Source of the DNA: an uncultured archaeon | GTDB taxonomy: Archaea > Asgardarchaeota > Thorarchaeia > Thorarchaeales > Thorarchaeaceae | DNA: 32,000 nucleotides | Direction of reading: 5' to 3' | NCBI GenBank assembly: GCA_964354495.1 | Contig: CAYHAA010000002.1 | Coordinates: 120,001-152,000 of the forward strand | Shown here: in pieces, positions 1 through 6,830 of the stretch | Position numbering within the stretch: position 1 is the stretch's first letter | Layout: every line of letters starts with the position of its first letter | Notes under the pieces: model-generated | What the model saw: only the letters and a program-made list of their open reading frames with translations | The model's database searches: none | What the model was told of the DNA's origin: nothing | Program-made: the position numbers and the translations under genes

Positions 1-131
1 CGGATCAGTACCATGCTCAAGTCTTCGAAGTATCAGCAAAGACAGGGGAGGGTGTAAGCCAGATGTTCGAGGCAGCAGGCAAAGTTCTCTCAGAGCGAAG
101 CACTAAAACTAGTTCCGGAGTTGAACACTGA
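1..131 (+). CDS. 3' end of a Ras-superfamily (Rab-like) small GTPase, partial, running off the left edge
   Basis: The frame starting at nt 3 reads DQYHAQVFEVSAKTGEGVSQMFEAAGKVLSERSTKTSSGVEH* (TGA 129-131). FEVSAKTGEGV is a G5 (ExSAK) motif followed by the terminal helix. It is not in the ORF track because it is truncated. Confidence 0.8.
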   Translation, partial: DQYHAQVFEVSAKTGEGVSQMFEAAGKVLSERSTKTSSGVEH

Positions 132-227
132 GTCAATCCTGAATCGATTTGTACGCAGTATCATTAAATATCGCCTAGTATTCCTTAATCAAGGACCACT
201 AGCAGATCGCAAGACGGAGACCTAGGC

Positions 228-488
228 TTGGCAAAAGTGAAACTCAGACCGTTTGCTTGTCCCTCCTGTGGGCAAGGCAAACTGGTCTATGTGGAAGTCG
301 ATGAATTGACTATCACAAGAGCGAAACGGTTTCCAACCATCGTGCAAGCCAAGTGTGGAAAGGGCCATCCTTTGGTTGTCTTTGTCGATGCGAACTTTCA
401 AGTTCGAGATGTCGAAGCTTCAGCTGTGGCGACGGAAGAGGAAAAAGACGCAGTCGAGAAGACAAAGGGCTGGTTCGAGTCATTCTAG
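228..488 (+). CDS. Small zinc-binding protein (CxxC...C-x3-H), function unknown
   Basis: TTG start with GGAGAC upstream. CPSC (C11, C14) and CGKGH (C43, H47), beta-rich core LVVFVDANFQVRDVE, acidic then aromatic C-tail. Confidence 0.75.
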   Translation: MAKVKLRPFACPSCGQGKLVYVEVDELTITRAKRFPTIVQAKCGKGHPLVVFVDANFQVRDVEASAVATEEEKDAVEKTKGWFESF

Positions 489-653
489 TCGTGAGATGCT
501 ACGAGGTTCAAGAGGCAGTGGAAAACGAATGGCATGTGCCACTACGTGGGCATTTCGTTGCTTACGAATGGAAGTCTAGTGTTACGCTCGGACTCGAACA
601 CGAAGCTCCATGGTGCAGACGTGGATAGCACATGGTAACGGGGACTAAACACG

Positions 654-1088
654 ATGTATGGAATCTTCGTCATCAATGATGCGGGTGAAACAATCGCTTC
701 CGTAGGATGGGAGAACCTCGAAGGCGACACGGCACTTATTGGTGGATTTGTCTCGGCACTACAGATGTTCATCAAGAAGATTTCCGGAAACGAGATGAAC
801 GAACTCCTTTTTGGCGAACTCAAGTTGCTTATCGGAAAAGCTGGAGACAACTATATTGTGACACTGCACTCGGTTGATGACAAAGAAGCCAAAGCCCACA
901 ATCGAGAGGTCATCAAATTCGTCACTGAACGGGGTGACGAGATCGATGACGGTGTTCTCATCTTGGTCAACGAGATGATATCCGGTGAAACTACTCCTGA
1001 GGAAGAAGAGAAGGTGCGTCGCGGCGTACGCGAATGGACAAGCGGAGCAGGTACGGCTGCAAAAGAGTGGGGAAAGAAGGTGTTTTAG
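654..1088 (+). CDS. Longin-like (longin/roadblock-type) domain protein
   Basis: The pattern beta-beta (YGIFVINDAGETIAS), helix (LIGGFVSALQMFIKKIS), beta-beta-beta (MNELLFGELKLLIGKAGDNYIVTLHS), helix is the longin topology, followed by a C-terminal extension. The fold is assigned by eye. Confidence 0.65.
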   Translation: MYGIFVINDAGETIASVGWENLEGDTALIGGFVSALQMFIKKISGNEMNELLFGELKLLIGKAGDNYIVTLHSVDDKEAKAHNREVIKFVTERGDEIDDGVLILVNEMISGETTPEEEEKVRRGVREWTSGAGTAAKEWGKKVF

Positions 1089-1100
1089 GAGGACAAGTTC

Positions 1101-2516
1101 ATGGAAGTATACGAGATAGCATATGTGTTTCTTGGACTGGCAACATTAGTGGCCGCTGGAACCATTATTAACTATAGTCACAAGAGATCCGTAGCATCTC
1201 CGGACCCTGAGATTAAGAAAGCCTTCAGACCGCTCTATATCTTCGCCATCGGTCTAATCGTTTTTGGAATTGGAGCTCTGCTTACATTCCTCGTGCGCAA
1301 CAATCAGATTTTCCCATGGGATGATACTTCTTTCGTCAGATTGCATAATCCGTACCTGAGATATTACACGATATTCTATGTATTCACTCTTGTTGAGTTG
1401 TTCTTCCTGACTATCGCAGCTGCGATGATTCTGAAACAATGGTTGATTTCTGTATTCATGGCCATTATGATTCTTATTGCGTTTCTTCTAATCTTCAATG
1501 CTGTTCTAATCGTCGAAGACATGAGAACAAGCAATGTGGCGGAATTCTATATCAATTTTGGTAACGTATTGAGTATAATTCTGCTATCTGCAAATGCTGC
1601 CCTTTTTTCATGGATAGCAAATGATACAAGAAGGAGCACTAGCATGGCATTGGGCTACGCTATGATTGTGCAAGTCCTAGCAGTTCCACGTTTCTATGCA
1701 ATACTGCCAACAGAACTGATATTCGCAATTACTGTCTTCGCACTTATGGGTCCAGCAATGATTGCTTTTGCGTTTCTGCGGCCGGACCAGAAGATATCAG
1801 TTGAACTCCTTGGTTATGGCGCCAGCTTTGCTGGGCCGGTTGTCATCTTCGCCAGTCTCATTTCGGCAGAACTTATCTCTAATCCCTTTATTGTTATTAT
1901 AGCAGTATTTGGAGCAATAGCTATTGCCTTGGCGACTGGAACAGCTTCATACGCCTATGGCAGGTGGAGAGAGACTCGTCAGCTGCCTACAGCATTACTG
2001 ATGGTCATCTTCGCAGCTATAGCGGCAGGACAAATGATTGGCATGTTGGGTACCTTTCAGGTACTGCCGAACCTATGGTCAATTTACTTTGATTTTGCCG
2101 TGACTTCCTTTGCACTGGCTGTTTTCACATCTGTGGGAATCATGGCAGCCGGATATCGCACCTTGGCGTCATTACCCCTACTAGTCTATCTGCCAACAGC
2201 GATACTCATTACTCAACGCTTTCCGAATTCAATCAGCCAGGCGTTTCTTGATTACGCCTATCTCGCAATTCCGGCGATGCTGTTCTTCTTCGTACCAGTG
2301 TTCCTTTTTGCAGGAGCTTGGAGGAGAATGAAGAAAGCTGGAACTGCTGGGAGAATGAGACCACTGGGGATGTCGGTTGGATTATTGCTGTTCTTAATAA
2401 TCAGAGTCGCTTCTCTTCTCGCCGACATTCAATTTGGAGATCCTGGTTACGGATTGGTGGCAATTGCGCTTGCAGTCCTCTGGTTGTCAATCACTGGCAG
2501 ACTCGATAGATACTAG
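1101..2516 (+). CDS. Polytopic membrane protein, about 15 TM helices, apparent internal duplication of a 7TM unit
   Basis: 471 aa, GGAGG SD at 1088-1092, starts 12 nt after the longin stop. About 15 hydrophobic segments counted by eye, with short loops and no soluble domain. Confidence 0.85.
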   Translation: MEVYEIAYVFLGLATLVAAGTIINYSHKRSVASPDPEIKKAFRPLYIFAIGLIVFGIGALLTFLVRNNQIFPWDDTSFVRLHNPYLRYYTIFYVFTLVELFFLTIAAAMILKQWLISVFMAIMILIAFLLIFNAVLIVEDMRTSNVAEFYINFGNVLSIILLSANAALFSWIANDTRRSTSMALGYAMIVQVLAVPRFYAILPTELIFAITVFALMGPAMIAFAFLRPDQKISVELLGYGASFAGPVVIFASLISAELISNPFIVIIAVFGAIAIALATGTASYAYGRWRETRQLPTALLMVIFAAIAAGQMIGMLGTFQVLPNLWSIYFDFAVTSFALAVFTSVGIMAAGYRTLASLPLLVYLPTAILITQRFPNSISQAFLDYAYLAIPAMLFFFVPVFLFAGAWRRMKKAGTAGRMRPLGMSVGLLLFLIIRVASLLADIQFGDPGYGLVAIALAVLWLSITGRLDRY

Positions 2517-2634: not shown

Positions 2635-3402
2635 ATGCAATTCGAGAGTATCGTCATCAGAGTCTTTGATGCTGATTTCATGTTCTTCGACCTTGCATTG
2701 ACCGGGCTCTGGATTCTTCTACTCTACAAGAAGGGTCTCATAGTACCGTTACTATTCGGCTTCTTTGGAATCTTAGTGAATTTCATCGTTGACTATTTCT
2801 ACTGGTACAGCATTCTTGGCATTCGAACAGTTGAGGGGTTGCCAAGTTGGATGTCGCCATTGGGTTTTTTCGTGTACTTCTCAATCACATATGGCATGAT
2901 ACAATACTCATATGTCCAGGTCATGTTCATACGTAGACCTGAGCAACCAAGGACTGAAAGGGAAAATCGAATAAAGTGGTCACTATTCCTCTTCACAGGT
3001 TGGCTTGCAATAGGTCTTCTATCGAACGTTATCCCAATCAACGATTCCGAAGTGACAGTAGCACGAGTCATGACGGAACAACGAATCACTGAGGTCTATG
3101 CTGTCATTGCTGAATACGCTCTATTGTTCCTACTAGCAGTCAAGAAGAAATTCGAACTGAGTCCTAAGCGGATGTTGTATGTTTTTCTTGTCGGTATCTT
3201 TGTTCACTTCTCCATGGAGATTACTCTTGTACTGTCTGGAATGAGGGCATCAAGCGTCTTTGACATTCTCTTCAATAGCGTCTTTGAGTTCAACACCGGA
3301 ACACCAATCCTCTATCTCATGATGTTTGCACTCATCTCCTGCGTTGAGAAACTCAAAAAGAGGACTCCTCAGGGCTTACCGACAGAGTCTAGGAGACATT
3401 GA
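2635..3402 (+). CDS. Hypothetical membrane protein (about 6-7 TM) with weak internal two-fold repeat
   Basis: 255 aa, hydrophobic. The repeat is LLLYKKG...FGFFGILVNFIVDY versus LLAVKKK...VFLVGIFVHFSMEI. Confidence 0.8.
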   Translation: MQFESIVIRVFDADFMFFDLALTGLWILLLYKKGLIVPLLFGFFGILVNFIVDYFYWYSILGIRTVEGLPSWMSPLGFFVYFSITYGMIQYSYVQVMFIRRPEQPRTERENRIKWSLFLFTGWLAIGLLSNVIPINDSEVTVARVMTEQRITEVYAVIAEYALLFLLAVKKKFELSPKRMLYVFLVGIFVHFSMEITLVLSGMRASSVFDILFNSVFEFNTGTPILYLMMFALISCVEKLKKRTPQGLPTESRRH

Positions 3403-3499: not shown

Positions 3500-6133
3500 T
3501 CAGTCCCTGAAATCTTGATTCTCATATTCATTGGGATCGGCATCAAAGGTTGTCTTGCAGTATGGGCTGCAGAAGTAGTACTTCTTCCCCTTGTACTCAC
3601 TAGTCAGTGATGCGCTGGCAATCTCGACATCCATCTTACATATTGGGTCTATCGCTACTTTGGGTACATTCGGCACAGTCTGTTTCTCTCCCGGAACATC
3701 AACTATGTCTTTTGGTTCAAAACGCCCAAGTAGTAGAGCATTAGATACAACGCTCACACTTGACAGTGCCATTGCGAGACCCGCGAACTCAGGTCGAAGC
3801 GCAAGTCCAGTGAATGGAAAGAAGACACCTGCTGCGACGGGCACCAAAATCATGTTGTAAATGAGGGCCCAGAAGAAACCTTGGCGGATCTTTGAAACAG
3901 TTCTTCGACCCAGCTCAATACCTGATACGACATCGGTCAGTTCATTGCGAACCAGGACTATGTCACCAGTTTCGACTGAAACATCGGTCCCCGAACCAAG
4001 AGCTATTCCGACATCTGCCTGAGCAAGAGCAGGAGCGTCATTGACACCGTCTCCTACAAAGGCCACTGTCTTGCCCTCATCTTGAAGTCTTTTGACATTC
4101 TCAGCTTTCTCGCTTGGAAGAACCTCGAAGAGGACGTTGGAAATACCAAGTCTCTCAGCAATTGCGTATGCTGTTCGCTTCTTGTCTCCTGTTATCATCC
4201 ATATCTCTATGCCAAGTTGCTTCAACGCATCGATGGCATACGTTGAGCTTGACTTTAACGGATCAGATATTGCAGCAAGAGCCAATGCACTCGAATCTGC
4301 CGCAGCAAAGACCGTTGTCTTGGCTTGTTTTTCTAGCTCCTCTGCGTGAGTTTCAAGCTGGCTGATATCCACTCCGTTTTCGTTCATGAAACGACTGCTG
4401 CCCACAAGAACTGTTATTCCATTGATTATCGAAGTCACACCCCGGCCAGAATGCGATTGAAATTCCATCGGTTTTGTAATATGAACATCCATCTCCTCTG
4501 CATAGCGCACAATTGCCTCAGCAAGGGGATGCTCACTTCCTTTCTCAACAGAAGCCATGAGCGCGAGCGCGTCCTCGCTCTTCACTTTCGGTGCCGTGAT
4601 GAAGTCAGTCACAGCAGGTCGTCCAATGGTCAGAGTTCCTGTCTTATCGAAGACAATCGTATCAATGTTAGGAATTGTCTCTAGCCCTGCTCCATTCTTA
4701 ATGAGAATACCATTCTGAGCCCCCTTCCCAAGGCCGACCATGATTGCAGTTGGTGTCGCAAGACCCAATGCACAAGGACATGCTGCGACAATGACAGCAG
4801 TTGTGAAATTGAGGGCAACGTCCCAAGTTACACCGCCCAAGAATACCCATCCAAGAAATGTAGCCAACCCGATTATGAGAACAATTGGCACAAAGTACTC
4901 TGCTATAGCATCAGCTTTCCGTTGAATTGGAGGTTTTTGTGTTTGGGCCTCCTCGACTAAACGGACTATCTGTGAGAGTGCAGTGTCTTGTCCGACCTTC
5001 GTAGCTCTAATCCGGAGCAAGCCGTTCTTGTTAATTGTAGCTCCGATCACCTGGTCGCCAATATTCTTCTCCACCGGAATTGATTCACCAGTGATCATCG
5101 ACTCATCAACCGATGACTTGCCTTCAGAGACTTGACCATCAACAGGGATTTTGTCGCCAGGTTTGATGACCAATAGATCCCCGACTTCAACATCCTCTGC
5201 TGGGATGGTAACCTCCTCCCCATTCCTAATAACCACAGCAACTGTGGCTTGAAGGTCCATTAGACTACGTATCGCTATTGAGGTTCTTCCTTTCGCATAT
5301 GCCTCTAGCCACCTGCCAAGAAGAATGAAGGTGATTAGCGCAGCTGATGTATCATAGAACGACATGTAGCCCGTGAGAAAGAATGTTGCAGCCACTGAAT
5401 AGAAATATGCAACACTCGTTCCAAGCATGATGAGAGTATCCATGTTCGTCTTGCCATGAACTAGTGCTCTGAAACTGGACCGATAGAATGGATAACCTGC
5501 AATGAACTGAATCGGTGTCGCAAGAATGAACATGATCAGGTCCAAAGGAAGTCCGGCGGGAAGGAGTGCACTTCCGAAAGTCATGAACATAATCGGAATA
5601 GTGAGAATGAGCGCGAAGACAAACCGGTATTTGAAATACTTAATCTCTTCTTCCCTTGCAAGGGTCTCCCTATCGACACCCGAAACTGTACTTTCTCCAA
5701 TTTCGAATCCTAATGAATGCAATTGGCGGCGCACAATCTTGGGAGTCAATAGGTCTTCATCATACTCTACAAGGACACGGCCTGACTCCGAGTATGTACT
5801 CACTGATATTGCACCAGTAAGAGCTTCTATCGACTCAGCAATCCCATTCCATTGGCCATCTCTGGGAGCAGGCTCAAGCGTGAGAGTCATCACAGAGCGT
5901 TTTGCGCGGTAGCCGCTGGATTCGACAGCTCTCTCCAATGCGGATCTGTCAGTCTTCGCTGACTCGAACTCAACCACTGCCTTCTCATCCAAGAGGCTGA
6001 CTGTTGCATGTATGACTCCATCCTGACTCATCAGCGATTTCTCAACGGTAGCTACACAAGATGCACAATGCATGCCTTCAATCTTCATGGATATGCGTTC
6101 TTTGCCATCACCGACTGTAGTCTGCGCGCTCAT
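3500..6133 (-). CDS. copA: Cu(I)-transporting P1B-type ATPase with N-terminal HMA domain and C-terminal YHS/TRASH domain
   Basis: GMHCASC metal-binding domain, TGES, CPC in TM6, DKTGT phosphorylation site, [12 protein letters not shown] and MALSS Cu(I) ligands, and C-terminal DPICKMDV...YYFCSPYC. Start set at ATG 6133 because the GTG at 6145 lies within the GGTGG SD. Confidence 0.97.
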
Positions 6134-6186
6134 GATATCGTCCACCTAAAGCACAGCAAATAAACAATAGTTAATACCATATGCGC

Positions 6187-6224: not shown

Positions 6225-6830
6225 TCATCCAATGAAGAAGTCGCTCTCCTTCTTCCCCTCAGCCTCGTCCATCAAGCGCAATAGCTCTGTGAAAGCATCT
6301 TGGATCCCATCTCCGGTCTTGGCACTGGTTTCGCGAAAGATAGCGGGAACTCCAAGTTTGTTAATGAAGTACTTAGTGAAGTCCTTGCCCTCCTCAGTTG
6401 TCACATACTTGGACTTGTCAAGTGAATACCGCAGGTCTGTCTTGTTTCCAATAATGACAGTGGGTGGCAATGGACCCATATTCTTGAAAGCCTCAACTAG
6501 CCACTTGGAGGCATTCTCGAACGTTGACCGATTCACTACTGAGTATACCAACAGAATGCCATTGCAGCCCGAATAATAGTGGCCTCTGACTTTCTCGAAT
6601 GTTGGCTGACCAGCAAGATCCCAAATGATGAATTTTACGATATCCTGGTTAAACAAGACCCGCTTTGTCGCCAAGTCAACACCAATCGTAGCAATGTGAC
6701 CTTCAATGAACTCCTCGCCAAGATAGTTGCGGCGGATACTAGTTTTGCCAACTGCGCCGTCCCCTATGAGAACTGCCTTCAAAATTATGCTGCCATCATC
6801 TTGGTCCTTCACTATACGGTACCCTCGCAT
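6225..6830 (-). CDS. Rab-like small GTPase
   Basis: G1 GDGAVGKT, G2 ATIGVDL, G3 WDLAGQ, G4 NKTD and G5 ETSAK are all present, with RabF-like segments IGVDL, KFIIW, YYSGC and LVYSV. Confidence 0.95.
   Translation of the reverse strand: MRGYRIVKDQDDGSIILKAVLIGDGAVGKTSIRRNYLGEEFIEGHIATIGVDLATKRVLFNQDIVKFIIWDLAGQPTFEKVRGHYYSGCNGILLVYSVVNRSTFENASKWLVEAFKNMGPLPPTVIIGNKTDLRYSLDKSKYVTTEEGKDFTKYFINKLGVPAIFRETSAKTGDGIQDAFTELLRLMDEAEGKKESDFFIG

Follow-up and report, generated by a model that had tools for sequence, protein, structure and literature searches.

A four-gene Asgard cluster as a candidate membrane-associated small-GTPase switch module with a tandem-7TM protein

A Rab-like GTPase, a small predicted zinc-ribbon protein, a single-domain longin-fold protein (p144) and a 15-helix membrane protein (the TM protein) are encoded together in Thorarchaeia and in other Asgard archaea. 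We regard it as about evenly balanced whether these four genes form one membrane-associated small-GTPase switch module on a tandem-7TM platform, in which the longin protein most likely acts in a GEF-like manner. In Asgard archaea the Ras-superfamily GTPases and the longin/roadblock proteins number in the dozens, and for most, to our knowledge, the matching of regulators to GTPases and their place in the cell have yet to be established. The pairing of a GTPase with a longin/roadblock protein is a known theme; a dedicated four-gene module with a tandem-7TM partner is apparently undescribed. We found no description of it in the searchable literature, but most subscription journals were outside our reach, so an earlier description may exist. 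In a cultured Lokiarchaeon, GTPase genes generally lie outside operons with roadblock, longin or TRAPPC3 genes, so that matching GTPases to their GAPs and GEFs from genome layout is hard, and no membrane targeting was seen for the Asgard proteins tested in human cells (PMC10933270). The module is a rare exception, in that one GTPase subfamily, a longin, a putative zinc-binding cofactor and a membrane protein have gone as a set through inheritance, rearrangement, duplication and loss. The route by which an un-lipidated archaeal Rab-like GTPase arrives at a membrane, and its regulation there, thus become a question of four-protein reconstitution. The module indicates a particular GTPase system linked to the membrane and open to test, whose function we infer, in the closest prokaryotic relatives of eukaryotes.

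The window is a 32,000-nt stretch of contig CAYHAA010000002.1 (positions 120,001 to 152,000) from an uncultured archaeon of the Thorarchaeaceae (assembly GCA_964354495.1), and the four genes occupy its beginning (Table 1). The source names of the closest homologs likewise indicate an Asgard archaeon of the Thorarchaeota type. An earlier note, made from the letters of the window, had described four co-oriented genes here, namely the tail of a small GTPase carrying FEVSAKTG, an 86-aa zinc protein, a longin-like protein of 144 aa and, 12 nt later, a protein of about 15 TM helices. This description holds up throughout. All four ORFs are on the plus strand, and 12 nt separate the longin stop from the TM-protein ORF. 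The first bases of the window lie in the interior of the GTPase gene, which upstream DNA completes to 186 aa, with a start at contig position 119571, 430 nt upstream of the window. The zinc, longin and 15-helix assignments are borne out by the alignments and AF2 models described below. The co-orientation is far beyond chance, because 36 of 38 assessable clusters, drawn from many genomes, link these four families.

Table 1. Features of the four-gene cluster (nucleotide positions in the window; residue positions in the TM protein)
Feature	Position	Strand	Basis or content
Rab-like GTPase, 3' end (last 42 codons + stop)	1..131, ORF 3-131	+	contains FEVSAKTG
86-aa predicted zinc beta-ribbon protein (C3H, CPxC ... 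C-x3-H)	228..488	+	ORF + ortholog alignment
144-aa single-domain protein, predicted longin fold (p144)	654..1088	+	ORF + AF2 model
471-aa membrane protein, 15 predicted helices (TM protein)	1101..2516	+	ORF + AF2 model
TM protein, first predicted 7TM unit	about residues 3-226		AF2 model
TM protein, predicted linker helix	residues 235-255		AF2 model
TM protein, second predicted 7TM unit	residues 262-465		AF2 model

By its sequence, the GTPase is a Rab-like member of the Ras superfamily. It matches Pfam Ras (PF00071) at 1.3e-39 and 135.8 bits (cut-off 21.6) and has all the G motifs, including the catalytic Gln, as well as a Gly at the Ras-G12 position. Across 30 orthologs, GEGGVGKT, T44, WDLGGQ, GNKID and SAK are invariant or nearly so, and the closest solved structures are those of Rab18, Rab14, Rab21 and Thor-Rab (7EZB). 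It is not a eukaryotic Rab sensu stricto, as it has no C-terminal Cys motif for geranylgeranylation; no C-terminal Cys is conserved in the 30 orthologs, the protein of the window ends in ...TKTSSGVEH, and an N-terminal Gly signal was not found in the GTPase. Thor-Rab likewise has no C-terminal Cys motif (PMC10933270). In a tree, 30 module-linked GTPases group as one clade (support 99/96), in which the non-Thor members branch at the base; 14 other Ras-like paralogs from this genome fall outside it. The cluster GTPase scores 292 bits, against at most 159 for the paralogs, and on these sequence comparisons it appears to be dedicated to the module.

The linkage of the four genes, for which the earlier note had proposed a synteny comparison, is kept across Asgard genomes, also where the gene order differs. 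The order is GTPase-Zn-longin-TM in 14 clusters and Zn-longin-TM-GTPase in 20, while in 2 more the GTPase gene is on the opposite strand and adjoins the TM gene; the Zn gene is always directly upstream of the longin gene. We found the module in Thorarchaeia, in Atabeyarchaeia and in one further Asgard family. In the type-B clusters the intergenic gaps are about 1-20 nt, and the TM, longin and Zn trees all separate the same 13-member paralog group from type B, with support of 99, 98 and 99. Within single genomes the module has undergone two or three duplications, every copy keeping a cognate set, and some genomes carry three copies; the paralogous modules of one genome are of types A, A' and B. 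Over 52 genomes, a strong longin match and the TM family each occur in 50, and both occur in 48. In the two genomes that have the TM family alone, the TM gene lies at the edge of a contig, and the two with longin only have decayed modules from which the TM gene and the tail of the longin gene have been deleted. About half of the Thorarchaeial genomes carry the module (12 of the 24 high-quality ones), from which we conclude that it is dispensable. The most divergent TM relatives are found alone or with a GTPase only, and thus a TM protein need not be accompanied by the longin and Zn proteins. Among the flanking genes, no fifth conserved gene is common to the different arrangements. Genes for GDPD, AsnC-type ligand-binding, GNAT and wHTH proteins each recur within a single arrangement only, and the GDPD phosphodiesterase gene flanks 11 type-B loci on the opposite strand.

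The AF2 model of the TM protein (pLDDT 91.8, pTM 0.88) has its 15 helices arranged as 7+1+7, and an hhalign comparison shows that one half is homologous to the other (probability 91.5%, E 8.5e-7). In the model, the C-terminal half has a GPCR/7TM-type fold. Residues 254-470 align with ADGRL3 in VIA at Z 15.0 (rmsd 3.9, 205 residues), a value within the range reached by unrelated helical bundles, and the top 50 VIA rows for this half are all GPCR-fold chains (48 receptors and 2 designed soluble GPCR-like folds, Z 10.6-15.0, about 200 residues aligned). PAQR and HisKA_7TM models are similar to this half as well, and the GPCR likeness is therefore generic. The VIA search covered the C-terminal half, so the 7TM nature of the N-terminal half follows from its homology to the C-terminal one. 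The earlier note had named a transporter fold as evidence that would count against its reading, and none was significant; MATE, oxidase and other Foldseek rows have TM-scores of 0.11-0.22, and there is no Pfam or NCBIfam match above threshold, which leaves some room for a transporter of a new kind.

The order of the helices and the distribution of K+R (12 in inside loops versus 3 in outside loops) place the N-terminus of the TM protein on the outer side of the membrane and its C-terminus on the inner side. The positions of at least 85% identity (n=22) are biased to the cytoplasmic side: 18 belong to the cytoplasmic tail or to helix ends on that side, 3 are in the middle of the membrane and 1 is on the outer side. 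Conserved cytoplasmic loops lie around residues 225-239, 284-297, 407-423 and 461-469. The C-terminal motif TGR-[LA]-D-R is conserved. The outer face gives no sign of a conserved ligand site, with 1-2% of positions at 80% identity or more, and the conserved mid-membrane residues are Gly, Phe and Pro, none of them charged or metal-binding; a PAQR-type His/Asp site is not conserved in the family. The tandem-7TM architecture is kept at 20-30% identity across Asgard lineages. None of 30 members matches a Pfam family, NCBIfam has none above threshold for the TM protein, and only 70 representative clusters were found among 1.84 billion proteins. From these results we take the TM protein to represent a membrane-protein family that is new, narrow in its distribution and characterized by a pair of GPCR-like bundles. 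We rejected three other assignments. Membership of the GPCR families (7tm_1/2/3 and others) is not found in Pfam, and the adjacent GTPase is a small Rab-like one and not a G-alpha subunit. LYCHOS/GPR155 is too weak a whole-chain Foldseek match (E 0.03, TM-score 0.28-0.30) to support a relationship and serves as an analogy only. DUF2339 is the automatic name of the top AFDB match (TM-score 0.59), and no family member matches Pfam DUF2339.

As modelled, p144 is a longin domain, of a topology without an N-terminal helix. Its AF2 model (pLDDT 73.6) runs b1-b2-a1-b3-b4-b5-a2-a3 followed by a C-terminal helix, and DSSP of the model places the elements at E3-7, E13-17, H26-42, E49-53, E56-63, E66-73, H79-93 and H99-110. 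The VIA and Foldseek matches agree with this topology. The best VIA match is the longin domain of VAMP7 (Z 9.8, rmsd 2.8, 102 residues aligned), next come Sec22 and TRAPPC4 (each Z 9.4) and then sigma-adaptins, and Foldseek supports the longin fold at E 1e-4. The C-terminal tail is conserved as [DE]-W-[GA]-[KS]-K-[VM]-[FL]. With 144 aa and one longin domain, p144 is not a tri-longin-domain RabGEF subunit.

Several sequence comparisons bear on the kind of longin that p144 is. The family PF19036, the first longin domain (LD1) of FUZ, MON1 and HPS1, is matched below threshold by 8 of 30 p144 orthologs (best E 0.0015). The p144 of the window itself has no PF19036 match and no Pfam or NCBIfam family above threshold, and a search of PDB sequences with the longin alignment profile gave MON1 LD1 as its best match, below threshold at E about 2. 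Among the nearest p144 relatives outside the module, 4 of 8 sampled are fusions in which the longin precedes a Ras/Arf-type GTPase domain. One of these fusions passes the PF19036 cut-off (27.8 vs 26.1 bits) and matches the p144 profile at about 1e-20. Because p144 itself is below the PF19036 threshold, its assignment to the GEF type goes by way of the fold and this intermediate sequence. Together they suggest that p144 is related to the first longin domain of the Mon1/Fuzzy/HPS1-type Rab exchange factors, and that this Mon1/Fuzzy-type domain has single-domain archaeal relatives.

The 86-aa protein is a predicted zinc ribbon with two knuckles, C11-x2-C14 and C43-x3-H47, which together would supply the four Cys/His ligands of a metal site. 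C11, C14 and C43 are invariant and H47 is nearly so in 30 orthologs. Its C-terminal tail is also conserved, as K-x-x-W-[FM]-[DE]-S-[FL]. No Pfam, NCBIfam or PDB family matches it above threshold; Pfam zinc ribbons match below threshold only, the alignment profile run against PDB sequences finds zinc fingers at chance level only, and a protein-atlas look-up returns archaeal hypothetical clusters only.

The earlier note had proposed a receptor-like membrane protein with a cognate GEF/adaptor and a GTPase switch. This reading has partial support, in that three of its own checks, on conserved synteny, on a longin fold for the 144-aa protein and on a transporter fold for the membrane protein, turned out in its favour. 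From the modelled folds, linkage, co-duplication, co-occurrence, cytoplasmic conservation bias and fusions, we infer the physical contacts, the direction of action (GEF over GAP), whether the 7TM protein senses anything, and what follows downstream. The tandem-7TM protein would be a membrane-embedded platform and possibly a sensor. The longin and Zn proteins would dock on its conserved cytoplasmic face, probably by the Trp-containing tails that are conserved at their C-termini. The longin domain would bind the dedicated Rab-like GTPase and set its nucleotide state, most likely by GEF-like exchange, and would thereby control the membrane recruitment of a GTPase that has no lipid anchor of its own. 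A complex prediction for the longin, Zn and TM proteins, with the TM protein as the scored partner, gave a score of 0.19 (mark 0.32), which weighs neither for nor against contacts among them.

The same complex could also work with the opposite sign, in that the longin protein would be MglB-like and either GTPase-activating or sensing of the GTP state (a switch-off), or would be a scaffold as Ragulator is for the Rag GTPases. MglB, MglC, LAMTOR2/3 and Asgard roadblocks nearly match the longins in the fold search (Z about 7-8), Robl_LC7 and MAPKK1_Int are each weakly matched by two p144 orthologs, the MglA/MglB operon is a precedent (PMC10933270), and the GTPase, which keeps its catalytic Gln and has Gly at the Ras-G12 position, is expected to be responsive to a GAP. 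We consider this unlikely on topology, because p144 starts at b1 (residue 3) and has two helices after b5 and a tail helix, which is longin and not roadblock, and which led us to reject Roadblock/LC7 (MglB-like) as its class. The extent of the alignments argues the same way, as roadblock chains align with p144 over 87-93 residues (Z 7-8.2) and longins over 100-112. Moreover, the sole recurrent Pfam family is the GEF-type LD1, PF19036, which a close relative passes. An exchange-type longin is our preferred reading.

Other explanations concern the membrane protein or the linkage itself. If the TM protein were an effector, that is, a transporter, lipid-handling protein or enzyme of a new kind gated by the GTPase while the longin and Zn proteins regulate the GTPase, it would resemble SLC38A9, a polytopic transporter beside the roadblock/longin-GTPase system Ragulator-Rag. 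It would also account for the GTPase being the only retained neighbour of the TM gene in one divergent relative, and would suit the weak likeness to LYCHOS/GPR155 and the GDPD gene at the type-B flanks. Neither Pfam, NCBIfam nor the fold gives a transporter or enzyme match at a meaningful score, however, the mid-membrane residues and the absence of a conserved PAQR-type site do not favour it, and the GDPD neighbour is on the opposite strand in one arrangement only, so that we think an effector rather improbable. A mere anchor for the soluble trio, replacing lipid modification of the GTPase with no sensing or transport, has a small chance of being correct; it fits a GTPase without lipidation signals and a conservation restricted to the cytoplasmic face while the outer face varies. 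But 15 helices in a tandem-7TM architecture kept at such low identity are much structure for a tether, and repeated duplication with a cognate set per copy suggests a specificity like that of paralogous signalling systems. Finally, the genes might be neighbours through inherited order alone, with no joint function, since related MAGs of a single class supply most of the clusters, synteny among relatives is inherited, and the flanking housekeeping genes are locally conserved too. This we regard as very improbable, because the linkage outlasts the move of the GTPase gene to the other cluster end and to the opposite strand as well as duplication of the whole module, because the module is present in three Asgard lineages with no flanking gene common to its arrangements, because the TM and longin families are present or absent together, and because longin and GTPase are fused in one protein in relatives. 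The preferred reading remains a joint switch module on a tandem-7TM platform.

Among known systems, the tri-longin Rab GEFs (Mon1-Ccz1, Fuzzy-Inturned/CPLANE and HPS1-HPS4/BLOC-3) combine longin domains with a Rab-like GTPase as the module does, and all are fold matches of p144 in VIA (CPLANE Z 8.5, BLOC-3 Z 7.3, Mon1-Ccz1 Z 7.3). They have three longin domains where p144 has one, the module encodes no second longin subunit, and the partners of p144 are instead a zinc ribbon and a polytopic membrane protein. In SR-beta with the SRX domain of SR-alpha, a longin domain is likewise bound to a small GTPase at a membrane (SRX-p144 Z 6.6 in VIA), but SR-beta is Arf-like, has its own TM anchor and serves protein targeting, with no sequence relationship and another gene context. 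MglA-MglB and other Ras-like GTPase/Roadblock-LC7 operons join a small GTPase to a protein of the roadblock/longin superfamily, and MglB is similar to p144 in fold (Z about 8, VIA); the module differs in its longin topology, in a Rab-like GTPase with the canonical Gln, and in the additional Zn-ribbon and tandem-7TM genes. Passages of Liu et al. (bioRxiv 10.1101/2020.10.19.343400) describe an Asgard operon of a LAMTOR1-like roadblock protein, a Rab-like GTPase and a DENN-domain protein with a proposed GEF role. As there described, it is, like the module, a conserved Asgard neighbourhood of a Rab-like GTPase and a roadblock/longin-superfamily protein, but it contains no zinc ribbon or tandem-7TM protein and the module contains no DENN protein; the present module is not described in those passages.

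GPCRs, PAQR/HlyIII and HisKA_7TM proteins share with the TM protein a bundle of seven helices that starts on the outer side of the membrane and ends on the inner side. A further likeness to such receptors is that the conservation of the TM protein lies on its cytoplasmic face, with a GTPase gene beside its own. Unlike GPCRs and PAQRs, it has two 7TM units and an extra helix and no membership by sequence, and the module has no heterotrimeric G protein, conserved outer pocket or PAQR metal site. It is doubtful that the TM protein is a true receptor, read on its cytoplasmic side by a Mon1/Fuzzy-like longin and a zinc-ribbon cofactor that load the Rab-like GTPase; if it were, a seven-helix receptor would signal to a small GTPase in a prokaryote.

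The Ragulator-Rag/SLC38A9 and LYCHOS/GATOR1 systems of eukaryotic lysosomal nutrient signalling have no sequence homology to the module, and the Rag GTPases form heterodimers and include roadblock domains where the module GTPase is single-domain and Rab-like. LYCHOS/GPR155, a fusion of a transporter with a GPCR-like 7TM domain, is the top, weak, whole-chain Foldseek match of the TM protein, and the Nprl2 longin of GATOR1 is among the p144 fold matches (Z 8.3, VIA). On our preferred reading the logic is the same, in that a polytopic membrane protein acts alongside roadblock/longin proteins, by which a small GTPase is controlled at a membrane. If the receptor pathway were true, it would pre-date, and could model, the eukaryotic coupling of membrane proteins to GTPases through longin/roadblock platforms, as in Ragulator/SLC38A9, LYCHOS/GATOR1 and the recruitment of Rab GEFs.

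The window spans G000:C2:120001-152000. The 3.3-Mb, 97.7%-complete assembly of G000, the Thorarchaeota-type genome under study, carries the four co-oriented genes that an earlier note on this DNA had described, all confirmed as + strand ORFs and separated by gaps of 96, 165, and 12 nt. The small GTPase, which the earlier note had recognized from its tail at the window start, is completed by the upstream DNA to a protein of 186 aa that matches Pfam Ras at 1.3e-39. Conservation covers all of its G motifs as well as the switch-I Thr and the catalytic Gln, its closest solved structures are Rab18, Rab14, Rab21, and the Thor-Rab crystal structure 7EZB, and no lipidation signal was found at either end. 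A second Ras-like ORF in the window matches the profile of the module GTPase at E 1.4e-37; the tree places it among other paralogs and outside the module clade.

To examine linkage, we extracted the surroundings (about 11 kb) of 40 TM-family genes in 35 genomes and mapped the four families in each. Contig ends truncate two clusters, which makes them unassessable; all four genes are present in 36 of the 38 counted. The proposed four-gene linkage is conserved across Asgard genomes. Of the two exceptions, one cluster (L046) has no GTPase within 4 kb, and the other (L049) is a longin-TM pair directly after a complete cluster. The window's order, GTPase-Zn-longin-TM (type A), occurs in 14 clusters and Zn-longin-TM-GTPase (type B), with intergenic gaps of about 1-20 nt, in 20, while in two the GTPase gene is next to the TM gene on the opposite strand; the Zn-longin-TM trio is invariant and lies on one strand. 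Atabeyarchaeia (WXG46844.1) and one further Asgard family likewise have type B. We found no flanking gene common to the different arrangements.

Features in and around the window and at other fetched loci (L, locus; G, genome)
Feature	Location	Strand	Remark
Small GTPase, tail	window 1-131	+	
Zn protein, 86 aa	window 228-488	+	
Longin protein, 144 aa	window 654-1088	+	
Tandem-7TM protein, 471 aa	window 1101-2516	+	
Polytopic membrane protein, 255 aa, no family	window 2635-3402	+	118 nt downstream of TM gene
Heavy-metal P-type ATPase, 881 aa, CopA-like	window 3500-6145	-	From motifs visible in translation only: N-terminal metal-binding domains, Cys-rich C-terminal extension
Second Ras-like small GTPase, 201 aa	window 6225-6830	-	About 4 kb downstream of module, past the ATPase
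Membrane protein, 392 aa	L002:8863-10041	-	Upstream of window; repeated two-helix hairpins; weak PEN-2 match, 2.9e-6
GDPD gene	L050:3141-3998	+	6.5e-47
Longin-like/membrane protein pair	L084:5315-6642	+	G100, another Asgard family
Longin-TackOD1 fusion	L097:823-1956	+	G087; PF18551, 2.1e-31
Second-tier longin paralog	G000:C5:73754-75616	+	Outside window; E 9.5e-25; in every genome of the genus

Among the neighbors, the 255-aa protein has homologs of 46-85% identity in the corresponding place at three further type-A loci (L033 and L035, same genus; L044, another genus), but most clusters lack one; this may reflect an accessory gene that is present only now and then, or mere local synteny. The glycerophosphodiester phosphodiesterase (GDPD) gene and its homologs adjoin the GTPase end of the module on the opposite strand at 11 type-B loci from several Thorarchaeial genera, which may reflect no more than synteny or may hint at a link to lipids. 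The 392-aa hairpin-repeat protein appears unrelated to the module.

The linked GTPases (n=30) form one clade with support 99/96 that excludes 14 other Ras-like G000 paralogs and within which the non-Thor members are basal. Because the same group of 13 clusters separates from type B in the TM, longin, and Zn trees (support 99, 98, and 99) and single genomes, such as G065 and G067, hold three copies, the module was duplicated as one unit. Two genomes of one genus have an extra longin gene immediately after a complete type-B cluster (L049, G024; L051, G022), and behind that gene lies a second TM gene in L049 and only TM-gene fragments in L051; these are tandem, partly decayed module duplications. 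Among 400 Asgard genomes, 50 have the TM family, 50 match the longin strongly (E ≤ 1e-31), and 48 have both. In the two TM-only genomes the TM gene is at a contig edge, and the two longin-only genomes contain decayed modules in which a deletion took the TM gene along with the C-terminal Trp tail of the longin; the Zn gene and GTPase are intact in one (G008, L089), and the 5′ part of the GTPase gene, encoding its N-terminal half, is also deleted in the other (G060, L090). The module is accessory, being absent from about half of Thorarchaeial genomes.

None of the Zn, longin, and TM proteins matches a Pfam or NCBIfam family above threshold. In the 86-aa protein, C11, C14, and C43 are invariant and H47 is nearly so, in keeping with its description as a Zn protein, and matches to zinc-ribbon families are scattered and all sub-threshold; from these residues and matches, we predict a C3H zinc beta-ribbon outside the known families.

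The 144-aa protein was modelled from an alignment with 47 relatives (pLDDT 73.6) and has the topology b1-b2-a1-b3-b4-b5-a2-a3, followed by a low-confidence C-terminal helix. This is the longin topology, and the best structural matches are longin domains, as had been suggested: VAMP7 (top, Z 9.8), Sec22, TRAPPC4, sigma-adaptins, Fuzzy, and Nprl2, with roadblock proteins scoring slightly lower over fewer residues. PF19036, the first longin domain of FUZ/MON1/HPS1, matches weakly in 8 of 30 orthologs. The nearest non-module relatives have profile E values of about 1e-17 to 1e-20, and in four of the eight sampled, an N-terminal longin is fused to a Ras/Arf-type GTPase domain; one longin among these fusions exceeds the Pfam cut-off for PF19036. 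Another fusion joins a domain like the 144-aa longin to TackOD1, a zinc-ribbon-rich output domain, and echoes the Zn-ribbon/longin adjacency of the module. The G000 paralog on contig C5 follows a roadblock-like ORF of 143 aa and an ORF of 309 aa, has no accompanying membrane protein, and is a separate soluble longin module.

The predicted structure of the 471-aa protein (pLDDT 91.8) gives 15 helices, matching the approximately 15 expected, and fold searches returned no transporter fold at a meaningful score. The order of the helices and the charges of the loops (K+R, 12 inside and 3 outside) predict an outside N-terminus and an inside C-terminus. TM1-5 align to TM9-13 of the same protein (hhalign probability 91.5%, E 8.5e-7), and because its two halves are thus homologous, the architecture is 7TM, linker helix, and 7TM. 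Residues 254-470 align to ADGRL3 over 205 residues (Z 15.0, rmsd 3.9), a range of Z that unrelated helical bundles can reach in the VIA search, and for that reason we read the model as a generic heptahelical receptor-like fold. The best 50 VIA matches are all GPCR-fold chains (48 receptors and 2 designed soluble GPCR-like folds), and PAQR and HisKA_7TM models superpose too. The family is very small, comprising 70 representative clusters among 1.84 billion proteins, and its most divergent relatives have only a GTPase neighbor or none. Of the 22 positions at least 85% identical, 18 lie on the cytoplasmic side, either at the ends of helices or in the tail with its conserved motif TGR-[LA]-D-R, three are mid-membrane, and one is on the outer side; they do not point to a conserved ligand site on the outside, and the conserved cytoplasmic side fits a candidate docking surface for cytoplasmic partners.

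Possible single-unit relatives also occur. Three loci of Jordarchaeia/Freyarchaeota (L081-L083; G205, G206, G208) encode stand-alone 266-aa membrane proteins with weak similarity to the C-terminal 7TM unit (E about 1e-10, small database), with no module genes nearby. L084 encodes a longin-like protein of 218 aa, which has a long helical tail, and 12 nt further on a 219-aa membrane protein weakly resembling one TM-protein half (E about 1e-7). Neither a GTPase nor a Zn gene adjoins these two genes, which may be related to the longin-7TM pair as a version with a single unit.

At their C-termini, the Zn protein and the longin each carry a conserved Trp-containing tail. That of the longin has pLDDT below 50 in the model, as would be expected of a peptide that folds upon binding. 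Taken together, the cytoplasmic conservation of the TM protein, the Trp tails, the PF19036 matches, and the longin-GTPase fusions support a GTPase partnership of the Mon1/Fuzzy LD1 type for the longin, and are compatible with the TM protein being the membrane platform of the module. The interpretation in the earlier note, a possible receptor-like membrane protein with a cognate GEF/adaptor and GTPase switch, is supported in part, namely in what it predicted for gene order and protein structure.

The pairing of small GTPases with roadblock or longin proteins is well known from MglA-MglB and Asgard surveys. Our literature search found no description of a four-gene GTPase/Zn/longin/tandem-7TM module. 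Cultured Lokiarchaeon GTPase genes lie generally outside operons of putative regulators (Tran et al., PMC10933270), and '7TM proteins' and 'a class C GPCR' appear among the Asgard-eukaryote structural clusters of a 2026 preprint, without the context of the present module. The Asgard operon described by Liu et al. (bioRxiv 10.1101/2020.10.19.343400), in which a Rab-like GTPase is joined by a DENN protein and a LAMTOR1-like roadblock, differs in its components from the present module. We regard the module as a form of the known GTPase-longin regulatory theme, here with a dedicated zinc-ribbon cofactor and a new tandem-7TM membrane partner, both in predicted roles.
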